Shown here piece by piece: positions 15,842-30,163 of a stretch of DNA of 64,000 nt (position 1 is its first letter; each line of letters starts with the position of its first letter). A program made the position numbers and the translations under genes. Below the pieces are notes generated by a model, which saw only the letters and a list, made by a program, of their open reading frames with translations, was not told where the DNA came from and made no database searches. Origin of the DNA: Myxococcota bacterium (GTDB lineage: Bacteria; Myxococcota_A; UBA9160; SZUA-336); NCBI GenBank assembly GCA_965247115.1, contig CBDFGR010000003.1, positions 2,240,001-2,304,000 of the forward strand, in the 5' to 3' direction.

Positions 15842-16672
15842 ATGCCCTCCCTGATGGCCAAGGAAGCCGAGCTGCTCGCGCAGCTCGGGTCGAGTGACGG
15901 GCTGCTAATCGCGTACTCCGGCGGAGTGGACTCCGCGTACCTCGCCTGGGCGGCTCACACCGCGCTCGGAGATCGCGCCCTCGCCGTGACGGCCGACTCT
16001 CCCTCTTACCCGGAGAGCCACCGCAGCATGGCGAAGGCGATGGCCGAGCAGTTCGGTTTTGCGCACCGCTTCGTCGACACGTGTGAGGTGGAGAACCCCG
16101 AGTACGCGGCCAACCCTTCCAACCGCTGCTACTTCTGCAAGTCGGAGCTATTCGACGTGCTCGAGCGGCTGCGGCAGCAGCTCGGCTACGAGGCCGTCGC
16201 CTACGGCATCAACAGCGACGACACGGGCGACTTTCGTCCCGGCCATCGGGCGGCAGAAGAGCATCGTGTCCTGTCGCCGCTGCTCGACGCGGGCTTGAGC
16301 AAGAGCGAGATCCGTCAGCTGTCTCGGGAGGCGGGCTTGCCGAGCGCGGACCTGCCCGCGTCCGCCTGCCTCTCTTCGCGGATTCCCTACGGAATGGAGG
16401 TCACGCCCGCGAAGCTGCGCCAGATCGACCGCGCGGAGGACGCACTGCGCGAGCTCGGCTTCCGGCAGGTACGCGTTCGACACCACGGCGACCTGGCGCG
16501 AATCGAGCTCGCACCCGAGGAGCTGGCCGCAAGCGGCGACACCACTCGCATGCGACTCATGTCCAAGGCTCTCCACGACCTGGGATTCCGCTACGTGGCA
16601 CTCGACCTGGACGGCTACCGCACCGGCTCGCTGAACGAGGTTCTTGTCATCGAGCCTCCGCCAGAGGACTGA
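15842..16672 (+). CDS. larE: LarE-family ATP-dependent sulfur transferase
   Basis: PP-loop AYSGGVDS, NRCYFCK, DFRPG, ACLSSRIPYG, RVRHHG, GYRTGSLN. Confidence 0.9.
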   Translation: MPSLMAKEAELLAQLGSSDGLLIAYSGGVDSAYLAWAAHTALGDRALAVTADSPSYPESHRSMAKAMAEQFGFAHRFVDTCEVENPEYAANPSNRCYFCKSELFDVLERLRQQLGYEAVAYGINSDDTGDFRPGHRAAEEHRVLSPLLDAGLSKSEIRQLSREAGLPSADLPASACLSSRIPYGMEVTPAKLRQIDRAEDALRELGFRQVRVRHHGDLARIELAPEELAASGDTTRMRLMSKALHDLGFRYVALDLDGYRTGSLNEVLVIEPPPED

Positions 16673-16673
16673 G

Positions 16674-17441
16674 ATGATCCAGGCGGAGGGCGCGCCGGTT
16701 GATCAGGGGCGCGCGCAGGGGCGCTCCATGCGTGGCGAGATCGCCAGCGGCGTAAGACTGCTGCGATCTCGCTACGGTGTGCTTGGATGGAGGGGTGCGC
16801 GGGTCCGGGCGATGCGGACGAGTGGACTCGCTCTGGCGCGACAGCTGCCGCAGCAGCGCGAGAGGATGGAGGGCATTGCAGCCGCGGCGGGGGTCTCCGT
16901 TGCCGCGCTCACGTTGGCCGAGCGGCTCCACCGCGTGCAGGGCGCGGGCTTCCTGCTCGGGAGCTGCCTCGGGGCGAGCTTCGAGGTGCCCGTGGAGCTG
17001 GAGCCCGAGCTGGCGCTGCGTGCGAGCCGTCCGGACGCCGGAGGTTTTCCGAGCGTGGAGCTGACCTGTGCTTCGTTCGCTGGCTGCCTGGCCGGCGTGA
17101 ACTCGGAAGGCATCGCCGCCATCTGCCTTGCCGACCGTCGCCTGAGTGGGGTGTCGCTGCGCTTCCTCGCTCAGGAGCTCATCTTTCGGTCGAGGAACCT
17201 CGAAGCGGCCGTCGAACACCTGCGTCGTCGTGTGGCCTATGTCGGGGGAGCAGGCCTGCTGCTCGTGGCTGACGCCGCTGGTGCCGCGTGCTGGCTCGAC
17301 GTAGCGAACGGCGCGGTGAGGGTGAGGCCGGCTTCCGGCGCGGGTCTCGCGCGGGAGCCAATGGTCAGACTCGATACCTCCGAGCGTTCGCTGGTCTGGG
17401 CTCACTCGTCCGGAGAGCGGGAAGCTCGAGCGCTTGCTTGA
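16674..17441 (+). CDS. Hypothetical protein, distant C45/Ntn-hydrolase-like
   Basis: QGRAQG N-terminus and GCLAGVNSEGIA motif; starts immediately after the larE stop. Confidence 0.5.
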   Translation: MIQAEGAPVDQGRAQGRSMRGEIASGVRLLRSRYGVLGWRGARVRAMRTSGLALARQLPQQRERMEGIAAAAGVSVAALTLAERLHRVQGAGFLLGSCLGASFEVPVELEPELALRASRPDAGGFPSVELTCASFAGCLAGVNSEGIAAICLADRRLSGVSLRFLAQELIFRSRNLEAAVEHLRRRVAYVGGAGLLLVADAAGAACWLDVANGAVRVRPASGAGLAREPMVRLDTSERSLVWAHSSGEREARALA

Positions 17442-17537: not shown

Positions 17538-18173
17538 GTGATTCCGACGCTGCTGAAGGATGCGCTGCCACGTCAGCTCGCGTACGCCATCAGCGGAGCT
17601 CGGCTCGCCAAGGAGCTCAAGCCCGTCGAAGGCCTGGAAGAGATGGGGCTGTTCTACCTGTTCACGTCGGGCGTGCAGCTCGACCACTACGATCCGATCG
17701 TGAGTCGCGCCCACGAGTATCCGGTGCTCGCGCTGGACAACAGCCTCCCGCAGCTGACGAACAGCGCGCTGGAGCGCTTGCGGACGAAGACGGGGAGGCG
17801 TTCGGACTTGGGTTGGAGGATCGGTGGCGGCGAATGGTTCACCTCCCGCTTCCACGGCGCTGCGCGTGCGCAAGCTCAGCTCATGGGCTGCTCCGTCGCC
17901 GAGCTCGAGAAAAAGGAATCTGCAGCCGGAGAGCTCGAGCTCTGCCAGCAATCGATCCTGGTCTTCCCCGTGAAGGCCCGGATGCGCAAGCGCGTGACAA
18001 AGTTGATCCTGGAGCACACGATTCAGCCCGTTCGGAACTGGCTCACTGCAGCGCGCAACAGCAGGGAGACGCAACGTCCGTTGGTGATCCTGTTTGACGA
18101 GCAGCGAGGCACGGTCTGGACGAAGTTCTGCGAGGATTGGAGCGATCCCGCCGCTCCTCGACATTACAGGTAG
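17538..18173 (+). CDS. Hypothetical protein
   Basis: Protein-like composition; preceded by TTGACG-N17-GATGCT. Confidence 0.65.
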   Translation: MIPTLLKDALPRQLAYAISGARLAKELKPVEGLEEMGLFYLFTSGVQLDHYDPIVSRAHEYPVLALDNSLPQLTNSALERLRTKTGRRSDLGWRIGGGEWFTSRFHGAARAQAQLMGCSVAELEKKESAAGELELCQQSILVFPVKARMRKRVTKLILEHTIQPVRNWLTAARNSRETQRPLVILFDEQRGTVWTKFCEDWSDPAAPRHYR

Positions 18174-20802: not shown

Positions 20803-21678
20803 TTACCGCTGGCACTTGGCGCAGAAGTGGGTACCCCTCTGCGCGATCGTGATCCTCCGGATCTTGCTACCGCAGCCCGGACATGGCTCGCCGGTCCTGG
20901 CGTAGACGCGGCGCTCGTTCTGATAGGTGCCGTCTGTTCCGTCGGGGGAAATGTAATCGCTGATGCTGGAGCCCCCCGACTCGATCGCGCGTTCCAGAAT
21001 CCCGTGGAGCGCCTCGATCACGGAGTTGCACTCTTTGCGAGTCACGCGCCTTGCGCGCCGTGTCGGCCGGACCTGAGCCAGGAACAGGCATTCGTCCGCA
21101 TAGATGTTCCCGACCCCGGCAATGGTCGACTGGTCCAGCAGCAGGCTCTTGATCTCGATCTTGCGTCCGCGGGCCGCGCGAAAGAGCTGCTCTCCCGTTG
21201 CCAGCAGGGCGTCGACGCCCAGCTTCTCGAGGCGCGGCTCGCGCTCTCCCGGCTCGAGGAGCCGCACCTTTCCGAACTTGCGCACGTCTCTCATCAGCAC
21301 CTTGGATCCGCCGTCTTCGAAGCAGAGCTGCAGATGCGTGTGACGATCGGGTGCGAAGCGGGTCTGTTGCTCGGGCGAGAGGGAGGAACGCGCGGAGGCT
21401 GAGAGCAGTCGGGGGCTCGCTGCCTCCTCGGAGAAGAGCTGACCCGACATGCCGAGGTGGAGCAAGAGCCTCCGGCCGTCATCCAGCAGGGCTACCAGGT
21501 ACTTGCCGTGACGTTCGAGCCCGGTGACAGAGCGACCTGCGAGACGTCGGCGCAGGCGCCGCGGGTCCGTCAGAAAGAAGTAGCTGTTCCCCGTGGTGAG
21601 GACCCGTGAGATGCGTCTGCCCACGAGCAGCCCCTCGATGCGGCGGCGCGTGACCTCGACTTCCGGTAGCTCGGGCAT
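20803..21678 (-). CDS. mutM: Formamidopyrimidine-DNA glycosylase
   Basis: MPELPEVE, GKYL, HLGMSG, GVGNIYADE and a C-terminal Cys4 zinc finger. Confidence 0.96.
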   Translation of the reverse strand: MPELPEVEVTRRRIEGLLVGRRISRVLTTGNSYFFLTDPRRLRRRLAGRSVTGLERHGKYLVALLDDGRRLLLHLGMSGQLFSEEAASPRLLSASARSSLSPEQQTRFAPDRHTHLQLCFEDGGSKVLMRDVRKFGKVRLLEPGEREPRLEKLGVDALLATGEQLFRAARGRKIEIKSLLLDQSTIAGVGNIYADECLFLAQVRPTRRARRVTRKECNSVIEALHGILERAIESGGSSISDYISPDGTDGTYQNERRVYARTGEPCPGCGSKIRRITIAQRGTHFCAKCQR

Positions 21679-21701
21679 GTGTCATGCTAAATATATCCGG
21701 C

Positions 21702-23486
21702 ATGAGAGAACGGGTCTTCGGAATCGAGACGGAGTACGCGCTGATTTACCACCCGCGAGCGGGCGTGAGTCAGCGGGGCCCCACCAAGCTCGAGCTGTAT
21801 CGGCGCTTCGAGGCGGCCCTGCTCCGGCGCGTGCGCACCTTGCCTCAGGGCTTCTCTCCCCTGCGGCCAAAAGGCGGCCGCTTCCTGGAGAACGGCACGA
21901 CCTTTCACTATGAGGCCAGCGCGGACGAGTACGAGAGCGGACTGCTCGAGATGGCGAGCCCGGAGTGCCGTGATCCCTTCGCGCTGATCCACTTCGAGCG
22001 GGCGAAGGACGAGCTGGTGGAAGAGCTGGCTCACGAGGTGAACGAGCAGCTTGCGCTCGCCGGCTACCGCGGCCAGGTACGGCTCGGGAAGAACAACATA
22101 GATAGTCAGGGCAACACCTTTGGCTCGCACGAGAGCTACTGGGTGGAGGATCGCTTCTCCTTGGGACTGCGCCTGCTCTTCGTGCCGCTGTGGCTGCTGT
22201 TGTGCTTGCTCTCGCTGCCTGTCGTCCTCTACCTGCTGGGGCTGCGAGTTGCGTTCGTCGTGCTGGCACTCGCGACTGGACTCTCGCTCCTGGTCGTGGG
22301 CGCAGTGCTGCGGGTCGTGCGACCTGGCGCCGCGCAACGAGTCTTCGGGGCGGTGGAGCGCTTTGCCCGTCAGCTGGAGGACCACCCCGGCGAGCTGGCG
22401 CGCCGCACGCAGAACCTGATCGCTCCGATCTATCCGCTCATGAGTCTCCACTCCGCCGTCTACAATCGCTTCCACTTCCGACGCTTCCGCAAATACCTGA
22501 CCGGCTTCCTCGTTTCGCGCACTCTCTACACGGGAGCCGGAACGCTCTCTTTCGACGGCGGGCCGCTGCTCCGGCTCGCTCAGCGACCACCGTTTCTCAA
22601 GACGCTGGCTCGGATCTTCCCTGATGGCGACGAGCGCCCGCTCTACGAGACGCGCGACCTCTTCTTTCAGCCCTGGTCTGCGCTCCGCGCGCGGCGGCGT
22701 CTGCACCTGCTGATAGGAGACGCGAACCTGTCGGAATGGGCGCAGGTGCTGCGCGTGGGCGCGACGGCGCTCGTGCTGGAGGCGATCGAGTCCGGTGTCG
22801 AGTTCGACTGGCCCGTGTTGAGTGCACCGCTTGCGTCACTGCGCCGGATCAACCGCGATCCCGAGCTCGGCGCAGAGCTGGAGCTGGTCGGAGGGGCGCG
22901 AATGACCGCCCTCGAGCTCCAGCGCGCCTATCTGCACGGTGTGCGACAGGTGCTCGGGAACGCGCCTCAGCAGGCGTGGAAGCGCCGTGTGCTCGAGTAC
23001 TGGGAGGAGACCCTGGAGGCGCTGGAGCTCGATCCGCAGTCGCTTGCCGATCGTGTCGACTGGATCGCGAAGGCGCGGCTCCTGCGCGAGGAGATCGAAG
23101 ATCCCCGAGACCGCAGCGAGCTGCGACAGCGCGGCGCGGAGCTCCTGGCAGACGAGGGTCCGCACGGTCCTGCGGATGCACGGCTGCGAGAGCTGGCGTT
23201 CCGGGCCTGGCGGGTCGACCTGCGCTATCACGAGCTCTCCCCGCGCGGTGGCTACCGGCGGCTCGAGGCGCGCGGCCTCATGCGCCGCCTGACCGACCCC
23301 GAGCGAGTGACCAGAGCCCGCACGTCGCCGCCCGACGACACGCGCGCCTGGGCACGCGGCCGGGCGATCAAGTGGGCGCACGCGCAGGCCGTCTCCGGAA
23401 GGGCGGGCTGGCACCGCGTGCGGATCGGAAAGTTCGATTGGAGGTTCTTTCCCGATCCCCTCGACTCTCAGCGCCAGGGCGAGTAG
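21702..23486 (+). CDS. Pup ligase/deamidase (PafA/Dop) family protein with a hydrophobic insertion
   Basis: FGIETEY, FLENG, EMASPEC, KNNIDSQGNTFGSHESY, FLVSRTLYTGAG, RRLHLLIGDANLSE, DWIAK, DLRYHEL, PPDDTRAWARG. Confidence 0.88.
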   Translation: MRERVFGIETEYALIYHPRAGVSQRGPTKLELYRRFEAALLRRVRTLPQGFSPLRPKGGRFLENGTTFHYEASADEYESGLLEMASPECRDPFALIHFERAKDELVEELAHEVNEQLALAGYRGQVRLGKNNIDSQGNTFGSHESYWVEDRFSLGLRLLFVPLWLLLCLLSLPVVLYLLGLRVAFVVLALATGLSLLVVGAVLRVVRPGAAQRVFGAVERFARQLEDHPGELARRTQNLIAPIYPLMSLHSAVYNRFHFRRFRKYLTGFLVSRTLYTGAGTLSFDGGPLLRLAQRPPFLKTLARIFPDGDERPLYETRDLFFQPWSALRARRRLHLLIGDANLSEWAQVLRVGATALVLEAIESGVEFDWPVLSAPLASLRRINRDPELGAELELVGGARMTALELQRAYLHGVRQVLGNAPQQAWKRRVLEYWEETLEALELDPQSLADRVDWIAKARLLREEIEDPRDRSELRQRGAELLADEGPHGPADARLRELAFRAWRVDLRYHELSPRGGYRRLEARGLMRRLTDPERVTRARTSPPDDTRAWARGRAIKWAHAQAVSGRAGWHRVRIGKFDWRFFPDPLDSQRQGE

Positions 23487-23517
23487 CTCGGCCAGGCGAA
23501 TCAGTTAGCTTCGCCGC

Positions 23518-23805
23518 ATGCGGATCGCCGCAGAGACCGTTCTGCGCATGGCACGCCTCGCGCGGCTCGAGCTCCAACCGGACGAGGTGGAGCGCATGCG
23601 CGAGGATCTGGACGCCATCCTGACCTACGTCGAGCGCCTCGACGAGCTCGACACGTCGGCGGTCCCTCCCACCACCCACGTTCTCGAGCTCACGACACCG
23701 CTGCGACCCGACGAGGTGCACGGCGTGTTGAAGGTTTCCGAGGTCGTCCGCAACGCACCAGAGCACACCGAGTCCGCCATGGTCGTGCCCAAGGTCCTCG
23801 AGTGA
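23518..23805 (+). CDS. gatC: Asp/Glu-tRNA amidotransferase subunit C
   Basis: ARLARLEL, LDELDT, LRPDEV, NAPE...VVPKV. Confidence 0.93.
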   Translation: MRIAAETVLRMARLARLELQPDEVERMREDLDAILTYVERLDELDTSAVPPTTHVLELTTPLRPDEVHGVLKVSEVVRNAPEHTESAMVVPKVLE

Positions 23806-25328
23806 ACAGCCCTCTCGACCCGCTCTGTGCGGAGACACTGGGCGGCATCTCGCGTCTCGTGGCGGCTGGACAGGTGAGCTGTCGAGAGGTGGTCAAGAGC
23901 TGCCTCGACCGTATCGAGGCCGTCGACTCCAGGGTGGGAGCGTTTCTCTCGCTGCGGAGCGAGGAGGCGCTGCGCGAGGCCGAGGCGGCGGACCAGGCTC
24001 GTTCGAGCAGTGCGGCGCGATCCCCGCTCCACGGTCTGCCGATCGCGATCAAGGACAACCTCGTGAGCCCACGCTTCGAGACACGCTGCGCCTCACAGAT
24101 CCTGCGCGGCTATCGCTCGGCGTACGAGGCGACGGTCCTCACGAAGCTCGGCGAGGTCGGCATGGTGATCATCGGCTCCGCGAACATGGACGAGTTCGCG
24201 ATGGGATCTTCGTGCGAGAACTCCGCGCTCCAGACCACGCGAAATCCCTGGGATCTCGCTCGCGTTCCCGGCGGATCGAGTGGGGGCAGCGCGGCCGCCG
24301 TCGCAGCCCGCGAGGTGCCCGCCGCACTCGGGACGGACACCGGCGGCTCGATCCGCCAGCCCGCTGCGCTCTGCGGGGTGGTCGGGCTCAAGCCGACCTA
24401 TGGGCGTGTCTCCCGCTACGGCCTCGTGGCCTTCGCGAGCTCGCTCGATCAGATCGGCACGCTCACCCGCAGCGTCGGGGATGCGGCACTCCTGCTCGGT
24501 GGGATCGCAGGACACGATGCACGAGACGCCACCTCGTCGTCCCGCTCGGTTCCCGACTACCACTCCGCCCTCGGTGAGTCGATCGCGGGGCTGCGCGTGG
24601 GGCTCCCGAGGGAGATGCTCGATGAGGAAGGCTGCGATCCGGAGACCATGAACCGGCTGCGGGAGGCCGTTGCCGTGCTCGAATCTCTCGGCGCACGGAC
24701 CGTCGAAGTGTCGTTGCCTCACAGCTCCTACGGGATCTCCGCCTACTACTTGATCTGTACCGCGGAGGCCTCCTCCAACCTGTCGCGTTACGACGGGGTC
24801 AAGTACGGGTTTCGAGCGGACTCCGACTCGCTGGAAGACATGTACATGAAGACGCGCTCGCGCGGTTTCGGCAGAGAGGTCAAGCGACGCATCCTGCTCG
24901 GCACCTACGTGCTCTCCGCAGGCTACTACGACGCGTACTACCGGAAGGCGCAACAGGTGCGGAGCCTGATCCGCCGCGACTTCGAGGCGGCCTTCGAGTC
25001 GTGCGACGTGCTCGTGAGCCCAACGACTCCCGGGCCGGCCTGGCCCCTCGGCGAGCGGCTCGAAGACCCCCTGCAGATGTACCTCTCCGACGTATTCACC
25101 GTGACGGTGAACCTGGCCGGCCTGCCTGCCCTCTCTCTGCCGTGCGGCTTTGTCGGGGAGGGACTGCCCGCGGGCATGCAGCTGATCGGGAGGCCTCTTG
25201 ACGAGGCGACGCTCCTGCGTGTCGGAGACGCCTATCAGCGTGAGACGCAGTGGCACGAAGCGTCGCCCGAGCCGTGGCACGAAGCGTTGCCCGAGACGCG
25301 GCACGAAGCGTTGTCGACAGGATCGTAG
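23802..25328 (+). CDS. gatA: Asp/Glu-tRNA amidotransferase subunit A
   Basis: AIKDN, NMDEFAMGSS, PGGSSGGSAAAVA, DTGGSIRQP, SNLSRYDG, EVKRRILLGTYVLSAGYYDAYY. Confidence 0.96.
   Translation: MNSPLDPLCAETLGGISRLVAAGQVSCREVVKSCLDRIEAVDSRVGAFLSLRSEEALREAEAADQARSSSAARSPLHGLPIAIKDNLVSPRFETRCASQILRGYRSAYEATVLTKLGEVGMVIIGSANMDEFAMGSSCENSALQTTRNPWDLARVPGGSSGGSAAAVAAREVPAALGTDTGGSIRQPAALCGVVGLKPTYGRVSRYGLVAFASSLDQIGTLTRSVGDAALLLGGIAGHDARDATSSSRSVPDYHSALGESIAGLRVGLPREMLDEEGCDPETMNRLREAVAVLESLGARTVEVSLPHSSYGISAYYLICTAEASSNLSRYDGVKYGFRADSDSLEDMYMKTRSRGFGREVKRRILLGTYVLSAGYYDAYYRKAQQVRSLIRRDFEAAFESCDVLVSPTTPGPAWPLGERLEDPLQMYLSDVFTVTVNLAGLPALSLPCGFVGEGLPAGMQLIGRPLDEATLLRVGDAYQRETQWHEASPEPWHEALPETRHEALSTGS
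25250..25320 (+). repeat. Three imperfect 24-bp tandem repeats in the gatA 3' end
   Basis: GTGGCACGAAGCGTCGCCCGAGCC / GTGGCACGAAGCGTTGCCCGAGAC / GCGGCACGAAGCGTTGTCGACAG. Confidence 0.85.
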
Positions 25329-28314: not shown

Positions 28315-30163
28315 GTGGAAGTTCTGATCGCAGAAGACGACCGCGCGCTGTGTCGCTCGCTCGGGCGTGCGATCGAGAAGCTGGGCTACTCGGTCCGCCC
28401 CGTCCACGACGGGGCGGCCGCGCTGGAGGCGGTAAAGGATCAGCCTCCAGATCTCGTGCTGCTGGATCTTCTGCTGCCGAAGGTCGACGGGCTCGGAGTC
28501 GTGCAGAAGCTGCGTTCCGTCGATCGGACCCGCGATATTCCCATCATCGCGATGAGCGGCGTTTATCGCGGGAAGAGCGTCGCGCGCGACCTCGAGACCG
28601 CAGGCGTTGCCGTGTTCTTGGAGAAGCCCTTCTCCGCCCGCGATCTCGCCGGGCATCTGGAGCAACTGCTGGGCAAACCGGAGAAGGAGAAGCCGGCCGA
28701 GGTCGAACGGGAACGCGGCGACCTCACGACGCTCTCTGCGCCCCGTGTCCTCTGGGAGCCGATGCGCGACCGGAAGAGTGGCCTCATTCACTTTCAGTAC
28801 GGGAAGCGCCACAAGGAGCTGCTGCTGGAGCGGGGCGTGCCTCGTGCCGTCCGCTCCAACCTTGCCAAGGAGACCCTGGGACGGTGCTTGTTCGATGCAG
28901 GCCACATCGACGAGAGGGCGTACCAGGAGGCGCAACGGCGCTCCAGGGCCTCGGGGCAGCCGCAGGGGGCGCTACTCGTCAAGCTGGGTGCGATCCGGCC
29001 AGGTGCAGCTGGACCGTGCCCTGGCGGAGCAAGCGCGAGACAAGCTGCTCGACCTCCTGTCCTGGATCGAGGGCGAGACCTGGTTCGTGGAGGGCTCCGG
29101 TGGGAGCAGGCGGGGCAGCAAGGTCGAGGGCTGGACGCCCAGGCAGGTGATCGTTCAGGGCGCGGGGGTCATTCACCCCTCTGTGCTGGACCGCGAGCTC
29201 GGGCCCTATCACGGCTCCGACGTGTCGCCGGACGCTGAGGCTCTGAAGGGAGAGGAGCTCGGAGGCGCGGCGCAGGCCCTGCTCCAGGCCCTGCGCTCCG
29301 AGAAGCGAGTCAGCTCCTTGCTCCGAGATCACGCGTCCACCCTCTATGCCATGTGGCTCGTCGGCTGCGTGACCTTCACCGAGGTCGCGAAAGGAGCAGG
29401 TGCCCGCACTGCGCCAGCGTCGCGCGGGGGTGCCGAGGTGGCCGAAGAGCTGGCGCAGCTCAAGCGAAAGCAGAGGAAGCAGAACCACTTCGAGGTGCTC
29501 GGTCTCAGCACCAAGGCCACGACGGCGGACTCGCGCGAGGCCTTCGTAGAGCTCGCGAAGCGCTATCACCCCGACAAGCTCGGAGGCGCGAGCGCCGAGC
29601 TGCAGGCGCTCGCCTCGGAGGTGTTCGCGCGCATCTCGCAGGCGCACGAGGTCCTCAGCAATCCGGAGCAGCTCCGCAACTACCTGGATCAGCTCAGCAA
29701 AGGCAGCTCTTCCAAGGAGAGTAAGGCCGCGGTCACCAAGATTCTCTCTGCCGAGCAGCAGTTTCAAAAGGCCGAGGATCTCGTGAAGCGGCGCCAGTAC
29801 TCCGACGCGATCGACGCGCTCAACTGGGCTCTCAAGCTCGACCCCCAGGAGGGCGAGTTTTACGCGCTCATGGGCTGGGCCCGTTTCCTGCAAAATCCCG
29901 AGGACGCGAGTGTCCGGAGGGAGGCGCAGGAGCAGATCCAGAAGGCGACGAGCCTCGCCCCGAACTCGCCGAGCGGCTACTACTACCTTGCCAAGCTGCA
30001 CAAGGCTTGCGAAGAACCCACTCGGGCGGAGAGAATGTTCCGGAAGGTTCTGGAGTATCGCCCCACCCACGTCGAGGCCACTCAGGAGCTCCGCCTGATC
30101 GAGATGCGCAAGTCGAAGAGCGGGAGCAGCAAGACGCTCTTCGGCTTCGGAAAGAAGAAGTAG
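28315..30163 (+). CDS. Receiver + DnaJ + TPR multidomain protein, frameshifted near 28995
   Basis: Receiver domain (AEDD, LLDLLLP, KPF) in ORF 28315; J-domain (NHFEVLG, YHPDK) and TPRs in ORF 28607. Removing one base at ATCCGGC joins the two. Confidence 0.8.

Follow-up and report, generated by a model that had tools for sequence, protein, structure and literature searches.

A membrane-insert protein of the PafA/Dop family in a Myxococcota genome that also carries a complete Pup-proteasome system

According to one source, PafA is the only Pup ligase (PMC12053664). Membrane-anchored relatives of this enzyme have been a prediction since 2008. The Pup ligases of Plesiocystis and Rhodopirellula have four predicted transmembrane (TM) segments inserted directly after core strand 4, and their genes adjoin a Pup gene and one that encodes a membrane protein and are unlinked to the proteasome; tagging of membrane proteins was proposed for them on computational grounds (Iyer, Burroughs and Aravind, PMC2588565). 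Planctomycete proteins were taken as an outgroup by Hecht et al. (PMC7947786). In this work, we describe a related gene in a 64,000-nucleotide stretch of DNA (hereafter the window) from a Myxococcota bacterium (contig CBDFGR010000003.1, positions 2,240,001 to 2,304,000). The gene (21702..23486, + strand) encodes a PafA/Dop-family protein with a hydrophobic insert (P0001), for which the original prediction, made from the letters of the window, had proposed an orphan, membrane-tethered enzyme acting on a substrate other than Pup. We found that its genome has its own PafA, Dop and Pup, and the explanation that we favour, with evenly balanced confidence, is that the protein acts at the membrane as a second Pup ligase and makes use of the canonical Pup. 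Window coordinates given below are on the + strand unless stated otherwise.

The open reading frame (ORF) gives a product of 594 aa, or 600 aa from an earlier in-frame ATG at 21684. All of the PafA/Dop motifs first noticed in the window are found in the translation and in the same order, namely, GIETEY (residues 7-12), FLENG (61-65), HYE (69-71), KNNIDSQGNTFGSHESY (130-146), FLVSR (269-273), RRLHLLIGDAN (332-342), DLRYH (506-510), and PPDDTRA (543-549). A profile search assigned the protein to Pfam Pup_ligase (PF03136) with 300.6 bits against a gathering threshold of 25, covering model positions 1-440 of 441. Its scores were well below the cut-offs of the models specific for PafA (TIGR03686; 218.9 bits, cut-off 551.3) and Dop (TIGR03688; 210 bits, cut-off 492.3), such that it is called neither PafA nor Dop by these models. 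The AlphaFold2 model built from 120 sequences has a mean predicted local distance difference test (pLDDT) value of 91.1, and its fold agrees with the family assignment. Structure comparison gave Dop 5lrt (Z 41.9, root-mean-square deviation 2.2, 429 residues aligned) and PafA 4bjr (Z 38.3, deviation 2.7, 430 aligned) as the best matches, and the next structural family had a Z of 18.9. The gene is carried without indels on contigs from three runs of three studies, one of which is possibly the source of the window itself, and eight of the 10 base differences inside the gene among these contigs are synonymous. An assembly artefact as the origin of the insert is ruled out by these contigs and by the homologues. 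A scan of 21400-23900 for promoters and terminators found nothing. The low lysine content of the protein (1.7%) was considered as a protection against self-tagging and dropped, given the values of 1.6% and 1.2% for the neighboring gatA and mtnA products.

A genome search for Pup-proteasome genes identified a complete arc-dop-pup-prcB-prcA-pafA operon on the same contig, approximately 0.92 Mb away (C3:1340269-1346710), which rules out orphan status. There are three Pup_ligase matches on the contig, and the protein is the third PafA/Dop-family enzyme in its genome, beside the genome's own PafA and Dop. The operon genes score above the respective cut-offs for arc (729 bits; 505), dop (564.4; 492.3), and pup (62.4; 41.45), and pafA is narrowly below (548.6; 551.3). 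The pup product has 68 residues and ends in GGE, and the genome yielded no other Pup. In NCBIfam it was matched by TIGR03687, a Pup model, and by nothing else; the phylogeny described below contained no UBact ligases. Within the window, no match to arc, pup, prcA, or prcB was found at E<=0.001, in agreement with what had been noted from the letters. Among the 225 genomes of the class, Pup_ligase was found in 215 and Pup in 197. Of the 35 genomes with the membrane-insert paralogue, 30 yielded Pup, and the five in which it was missed are 58-75% complete. Two Pup matches each were found in G014 and G098, and seven Pup_ligase matches, possibly fragments or extra paralogues, in G058, G099, and G208.

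A protein search for homologues returned 265 matches among 8000 candidates; the 120 matches listed have 54-99% identity and 550-622 residues, and the taxon labels, where given, are Myxococcota, Deltaproteobacteria, or simply "bacterium". A pattern scan with one genome per species found 32 loci, mostly in Myxococcota or deltaproteobacterial metagenome-assembled genomes. The class is probably UBA9160 of GTDB. The 35 carriers in it (E<=1e-90) include 16 of its 118 high-quality genomes and belong to families f1, f2, and f12, plus one case in f11. One copy is split over two frames (L066:6001-7816) and another has one internal TGA (G015:C8:16577-18355), which may reflect error or decay.

The hydrophobic insertion of about 110 residues noted right after HESY is present and conserved throughout the family. 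It comprises residues 151-258 (22152..22475), with a net length of 105 residues, and alignments place its opening at the column of Corynebacterium glutamicum PafA R137, part of docking site 2 (available parts of PMC10465538). HE(S/N)Y and FLV(S/T)R are separated by 122 residues here, which is also the median among the 131 of 132 family members measured and among the planctomycete-type proteins (51 of 55 measured); the majority of relatives without an insert have 17 residues at this place, and a few have 15-24. Membrane segments were judged by hydropathy and flanking arginines. Mean Kyte-Doolittle values above 1.3 in 19-residue windows were found only for starts at residues 150-194, with a peak of 2.68; across the family (131/132 measured), the median peak is 2.68 in the insert and 1.18 outside it. 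The hydrophobic run itself (46 residues, 158-203; 22173..22310) is practically free of acidic residues across the family, has arginines on both flanks, and is likely membrane-embedded, as judged from hydropathy, family columns, and the AlphaFold2 model. Non-overlapping windows with values of at least 1.6 number two in 110 of the 131 proteins, one in 15, and three in six, and column 182 holds a polar or helix-breaking residue in 67% of the family. The run is followed by Arg-rich return helices (residues 208-257; 22323..22472) with invariant P242 and H250, which are predicted to be amphipathic based on the model and a hydrophobic moment of 0.72 at residues 210-227. Since the hydrophobic insert is conserved across the family, membrane association is supported, and the insert likely holds the protein on the membrane with the catalytic domain presumably on the cytoplasmic side. 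These features are compatible with a hairpin that has both ends in the cytoplasm, and an in-plane helix is the alternative. AlphaFold2 gave a single unbroken helix at residues 154-206, whether the whole protein or just the insert (79 sequences) was modeled. Membrane association is therefore likely, by two crossings or by an in-plane helix.

To place the protein among its relatives, we relied on an unrooted tree (420 core columns, insert columns dropped, LG+G4), in which the "paf" and "dop" labels of unnamed proteins are rough guesses based on motifs. All 23 insert-bearing rows are on one side of a branch with 100/100 support, and the eight rows of this family form their own 100/100 branch inside the insert-bearing clade. 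A first tree, with the insert columns kept, five rows without the start motif omitted, and the search incomplete, agreed with this result. Because the tree is unrooted, it gives no order of events. The clade unites the protein with database proteins of the planctomycete/Plesiocystis type; the tree did not include the Plesiocystis and Rhodopirellula proteins singled out in 2008, and the type was recognized by motifs. Two further insert-bearing PafA-like lineages (P0156; P0149 and P0153) have 648-660 aa and extra C-terminal helices. Insert-free PafA-like proteins of 776-837 aa (P0171, P0172, P0182) form their own branch. Two other long matches (P0151; P0154) are a TPR/HEAT-repeat fusion and a Dop-like domain joined to LRR-Roc-COR, and some of the long matches are possibly read-through artefacts.

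Compared with the TM-insertion Pup ligases described in 2008, the protein has its insert at the same site after core strand 4 and shares approximately 30% identity. In the supplement of PMC7947786, inspection by eye of the rows for Rhodopirellula and Pirellula shows Glu at the catalytic position, a longer loop, and G-L-x-E ahead of (S/T)PE. The planctomycete rows of Hecht et al. there have this Glu, the longer loop, and the site of insertion in common with our protein. There are also several differences. The four TM segments were not found here, in that the return arm is amphipathic rather than hydrophobic by hydropathy, and H143, H335, and R548 are kept (R318/D319 are less surely aligned) but changed in most planctomycete-type proteins. 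As in those ligases, proteasome genes are unlinked to the locus, but here they are found elsewhere in the genome. The TM-insertion ligases lack PafA, Dop, ARC, and 20S nearby, whereas this protein shares its genome with all four; they have an adjacent Pup gene, and it has none.

Members of this planctomycete-type sister lineage were collected in three ways. A search for longer proteins gave 70 matches, four of which were further insert-bearing proteins; for metagenome sister loci, 78 were fetched and the best 80 of 166 confirmed stretches were kept; and a phylum search (threshold 1e-45) found, among 401 sampled genomes, nine Myxococcota genomes outside the class with the sister type. Under a strict pattern, 65 of the 79 sister loci contain a short ORF that ends with Gly-Glu, for the most part as D-x7-Y-x7-GGE. 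Among the 55 sister loci with a full-length ligase, 51 pass the pattern, one has Phe for Tyr, and three are without a tag. In the other Myxococcota genomes, the tag is beside the ligase in 9/9, each with a single Pup_ligase locus, and none of the five tested has a 20S beta subunit. A lone enzyme accompanied by a Glu-ending tag is most simply a ligase. For a subgroup of planctomycete-type loci (L120, L125-L128, L130, L132, L133, L136-L138, L145, and L146), the tags end in xGE rather than GGE and a DEAD-box helicase gene is nearby.

For the family of our protein, no tag gene adjoins the ligase in 62 loci (L008-L069, approximately 35 distinct places). A profile of 28 sister tags, which recovered eight of the nine control-genome tags at E<=2e-6, gave no match covering the tag C-terminus in any of the 35 paralogue carriers, and weak partial matches were found in four of them (E 0.006-0.1). 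The two lineages are complementary: one has its own tag without a proteasome, the other has no tag of its own and a full canonical system. What sets this lineage apart is that it has no tag of its own where the canonical Pup-proteasome system is in operation. The original prediction had suggested an uncharacterised system. This holds to the extent that our literature search, which covered few subscription journals, found no experiments on any membrane-insert member nor any reference to a lineage lacking the tag, and a term search in a 2025 review (PMC12288473) also found neither; the kind of enzyme, on the other hand, was described in 2008 (PMC2588565).

The active site was compared using residue numbers taken from alignments to solved PafA and Dop chains. 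The strand-1 GhExE motif is GIETEY (21720..21737; 131 of 132 family members), in which E9/E11 correspond to Dop E8/E10 and PafA E16/E18. The HESY motif of core strand 4 (22128..22139) provides H143, which corresponds to Dop H155 and is His in 132/132, followed by S145 where canonical enzymes have Asn (Ser in 95 and Asn in 37 of 132). The stretch from R295 to D340 (22584..22721) retains R295, R312, R318, R332, R333, H335, and D340, and WHRVR (23409..23423) contains W570, equivalent to Dop W453 and invariant in 132/132. Overall, E9, E11, E83, H143, R295, R312, R318, R333, H335, D340, and W570 are kept in 127-132 of the 132 proteins, which matches the Dop columns E8, E10, E99, H155, R205, R221, R227, R239, H241, D246, and W453. 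Other columns have changed. As suspected from the HYE at the position of the YLD aspartate, the remodelled beta3/4 hairpin (FLENG..HYE..GLLE; 21882..21950) has a longer loop and Glu71 in the catalytic Asp column (Dop D94), with E83 kept; both Glu71 and E83 are found in all 132 family members and all 55 planctomycete-type proteins. Dop R90 is replaced by Ser/Thr, Y92 by His, N157 by the Ser/Asn at S145, N225 by an invariant Glu316, and H231 mostly by Trp, and the alpha-loop Thr-Thr pair is lost. Likewise, PafA D64 and the alpha-loop T197-T198-R199 are not conserved here.

These losses bear on whether the enzyme is active. PafA D64 is the proposed base and D64N is inactive (bioRxiv 10.64898/2026.04.10.717840, accessible part), and Dop R90 holds the nucleotide (PMC8599861, accessible part). 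A literature search for Asp-to-Glu mutant data at the catalytic Asp found nothing. Arg60, present in 117/132, could perhaps substitute for R90, although this is a guess. A catalytically weak or dead adaptor that binds Pup and tethers it, or proteins tagged with it, to the membrane would account for the changes at sites tied to activity in PafA and Dop (Asp to Glu, the R90 column, and the Thr-Thr pair), as well as for the patchy distribution in 35 of 225 genomes. We consider such an adaptor improbable, as the residues that bind metal, nucleotide, and phosphate vary little or not at all among the 132 sequences, and Glu71 is invariant throughout the clade, including in lone enzymes that are active of necessity if their tag is used. 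Judged from the alignments and the model, the active site is remodelled rather than collapsed, with the fold and most active-site residues intact; a collapsed site had been named at the outset as a ground for giving up the ligase interpretation.

The substrate-docking residues point to PafA-like use of protein targets. Docking site 2 of PafA consists of R137, R207, and R218, and site 3 of R442 and K444 (Block et al., PMC10465538, as given in the available parts). Four of these five are represented here, with R207, R218, R442, and K444 corresponding to R318, R332, R572 (120/121), and R574 (116/121). The fifth, R137, is the fourth residue past HENY and marks exactly where the insert opens; its column here is an invariant Asp150. 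By alignment, then, the insert emerges from the PafA-equivalent rim where target proteins dock, and this is the main reason why the enzyme is thought to be steered to membrane substrates. The protein shares with C. glutamicum PafA (4b0t, 4bjr) the fold, the GhExE motif, most catalytic residues, and the absence of the Dop-loop motif. It differs in Glu for D64, the insertion in place of R137, the loss of T197-T198-R199, and the membrane insert. PafA is also operon-encoded, whereas this gene is outside the operon of a genome that has its own PafA.

Dop from Acidothermus cellulolyticus (4b0r, 5lrt, 7oxy) provides the best structural fit, and its H155, R205, R227, H241, and W453 are kept, but the W47 Dop-loop motif, R90, Y92, D94, T217, and H231 are absent, the loop is shorter, and the genome already has its own Dop. 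A membrane-bound depupylase or Pup transferase, which would remove or move Pup on membrane proteins that the soluble PafA has tagged, is to be weighed as well. It would fit with the closer structural match to Dop, the slightly higher profile score for solved Dop chains (221 bits; PafA, 210), the lack of a helix in the alpha-loop of the AlphaFold2 model, and a presence always confined to genomes in which PafA could provide conjugates. The distance from E11 to N64 (52 residues) is between those of the genome's PafA (38) and Dop (70). Several traits are instead PafA-like, including the missing Dop-loop Trp motif, F61 and A85 matching PafA F54 and A72, the site-3 arginines, and two PafA-type indels. 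The sister enzymes are also the lone family members in their genomes, with no ligase to oppose. We regard a depupylase or transferase as having a low probability.

The nature of the donor was examined by complex modeling and by a search for tags. With the family alignment and Pup residues 30-68, the complex model scored 0.88, compared with 0.01 for the best of three controls; contacts agreed by at least 86% between runs, and the partner had a pLDDT of at least 70. The mark used for this score is reached by 116 of 157 solved and two of 215 mismatched pairs, which is a rough guide here because our own alignment was used. The helix of residues 497-508 together with DLRYH (23190..23231) is the predicted chief contact to Pup residues 55-62, with R501, R504, and L507 kept in 126, 130, and 129 of 132 proteins, respectively. 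Interface columns, catalytic residues included, are somewhat more conserved than the core average (0.84 vs. 0.74).

A ligase could also use a non-canonical donor, such as an unrecognised tag of its own, the terminal Glu of a protein, or a small gamma-glutamyl compound, and the acceptor might be a non-protein amine of the membrane. In favour of this possibility, many groove and active-site columns are unlike both PafA and Dop, and the sister tag gave no match to canonical Pup in a profile comparison (probability 0.6%). A convergent peptidase C26 gene also follows in a group of 11 of the 33 loci (Pfam-checked for two); on the other side, it lies on the opposite strand and is missing from the context of the window. 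The search for tags in the genome gave little room for another donor, as canonical Pup is the only tag-like product among 131 ORFs ending in G(G/S)(E/Q) and ranks top among 23 filtered short ORFs ending in G(E/Q). The one other acidic candidate tested (G000:C3:1176432-1176668) was rejected as not conserved, with weak partial matches in one of five relatives. Positively charged protein-docking sites are retained as well, and altogether we find a non-canonical donor unlikely. The different substrate and the lipid or envelope modification first envisaged are not favoured on similar grounds, given that the sister lineage pairs with Pup-like tags and the protein-docking residues of PafA are retained. 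The region around the rejected candidate (L185:2433-3698; G000:C3 near 1176400) contains small unassigned ORFs and, by eye, a probable DNA methyltransferase fragment, and is possibly a mobile element.

For a membrane-bound ligase that uses canonical Pup, the following mechanism may be proposed. The PafA/Dop fold, with metal- and ATP-binding residues retained according to sequence and model, would be held at the inner face of the membrane by residues 158-203, which would be embedded in the bilayer and have a cytoplasmic Arg-rich flank on either side. Pup residues 51-68 are predicted to occupy the usual groove such that the terminal Glu reaches the cradle. By analogy with PafA chemistry, ATP would phosphorylate this Glu, and Glu71 would activate the acceptor lysine. 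The insert on the docking rim may then select targets at or in the membrane. In the final and least supported step, tagged proteins might be passed to ARC and the 20S proteasome or freed by Dop.

Several observations weigh against this explanation. The catalytic Asp has become Glu, and the Dop R90 column, the Thr-Thr pair, H231, and PafA R137 are lost. The fit of the model to Dop is slightly closer than that to PafA, the alpha-loop is not helical, and without a hairpin break in the modeled hydrophobic run, a two-helix anchor is unconfirmed. As PafA-Pup and Dop-Pup complexes have been solved, the predicted docking may reflect memory, and it does not discriminate between ligase and depupylase. 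None of the 33 loci with known context holds any proteasome gene, with no pup, prcA, or prcB. With Pup in 197 of 225 genomes, co-occurrence is expected anyway and therefore indicates availability rather than dependence. Lastly, the tag profile missed one of nine true tags, and a divergent private tag is conceivable.

The gene neighborhood has two recurrent forms. In the form found in the window, fpg/mutM (20803..21678, - strand) is divergent and 23 bases upstream, with no space for a tag gene (14/33 loci), and gatC and gatA follow on the same strand (23518..25328; gatC in 17/33). In the window, gatC and gatA are followed by genes for AsmA-like and mtnA-like (IF-2B family) proteins up to 28268, an order that recurs in f1 loci, and no gatB is found directly after gatA. 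In the other form, found at nine loci in three genera of one family, a rhomboid protease gene with intact GASG and AHxxG motifs is on the same strand 48-96 bases upstream, and the convergent peptidase C26 gene follows. A 389-aa downstream ORF in this context was rejected as a shadow frame of the C26 gene. A rhomboid homologue is present elsewhere in the genome of the window, and the neighboring rhomboid is a weak hint of a functional link. Further away in the window, a response-regulator ORF (28315-29238) overlaps a DnaJ/TPR ORF (28607-30163) in a different frame, and the pair resembles a single gene broken by a frameshift. Two other ORFs, at 16644-17441 (265 aa) and 17538-18173 (211 aa), have no Pfam match at E<=0.001.

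A broader possibility, which we offer tentatively, is a Pup system with two ligases, in which the soluble PafA serves the cytoplasm and a membrane-embedded ligase marks membrane proteins for ARC and the 20S proteasome. The latter would derive from a stand-alone tag-ligase module that was rewired to canonical Pup, and in one family the neighboring rhomboid protease would take part. If true, this would represent a bacterial counterpart of endoplasmic reticulum-associated degradation, built from non-ubiquitin parts in Gram-negative bacteria. This lineage has such an enzyme and PafA, Dop, ARC, and the proteasome together in one genome, and with six genes from it the questions of ligase activity, of pupylation of membrane proteins, and of their degradation by a bacterial proteasome become addressable. 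Work on this lineage would show whether Glu can stand in for the catalytic Asp, and the protein would offer a natural membrane-targeted tagging enzyme.

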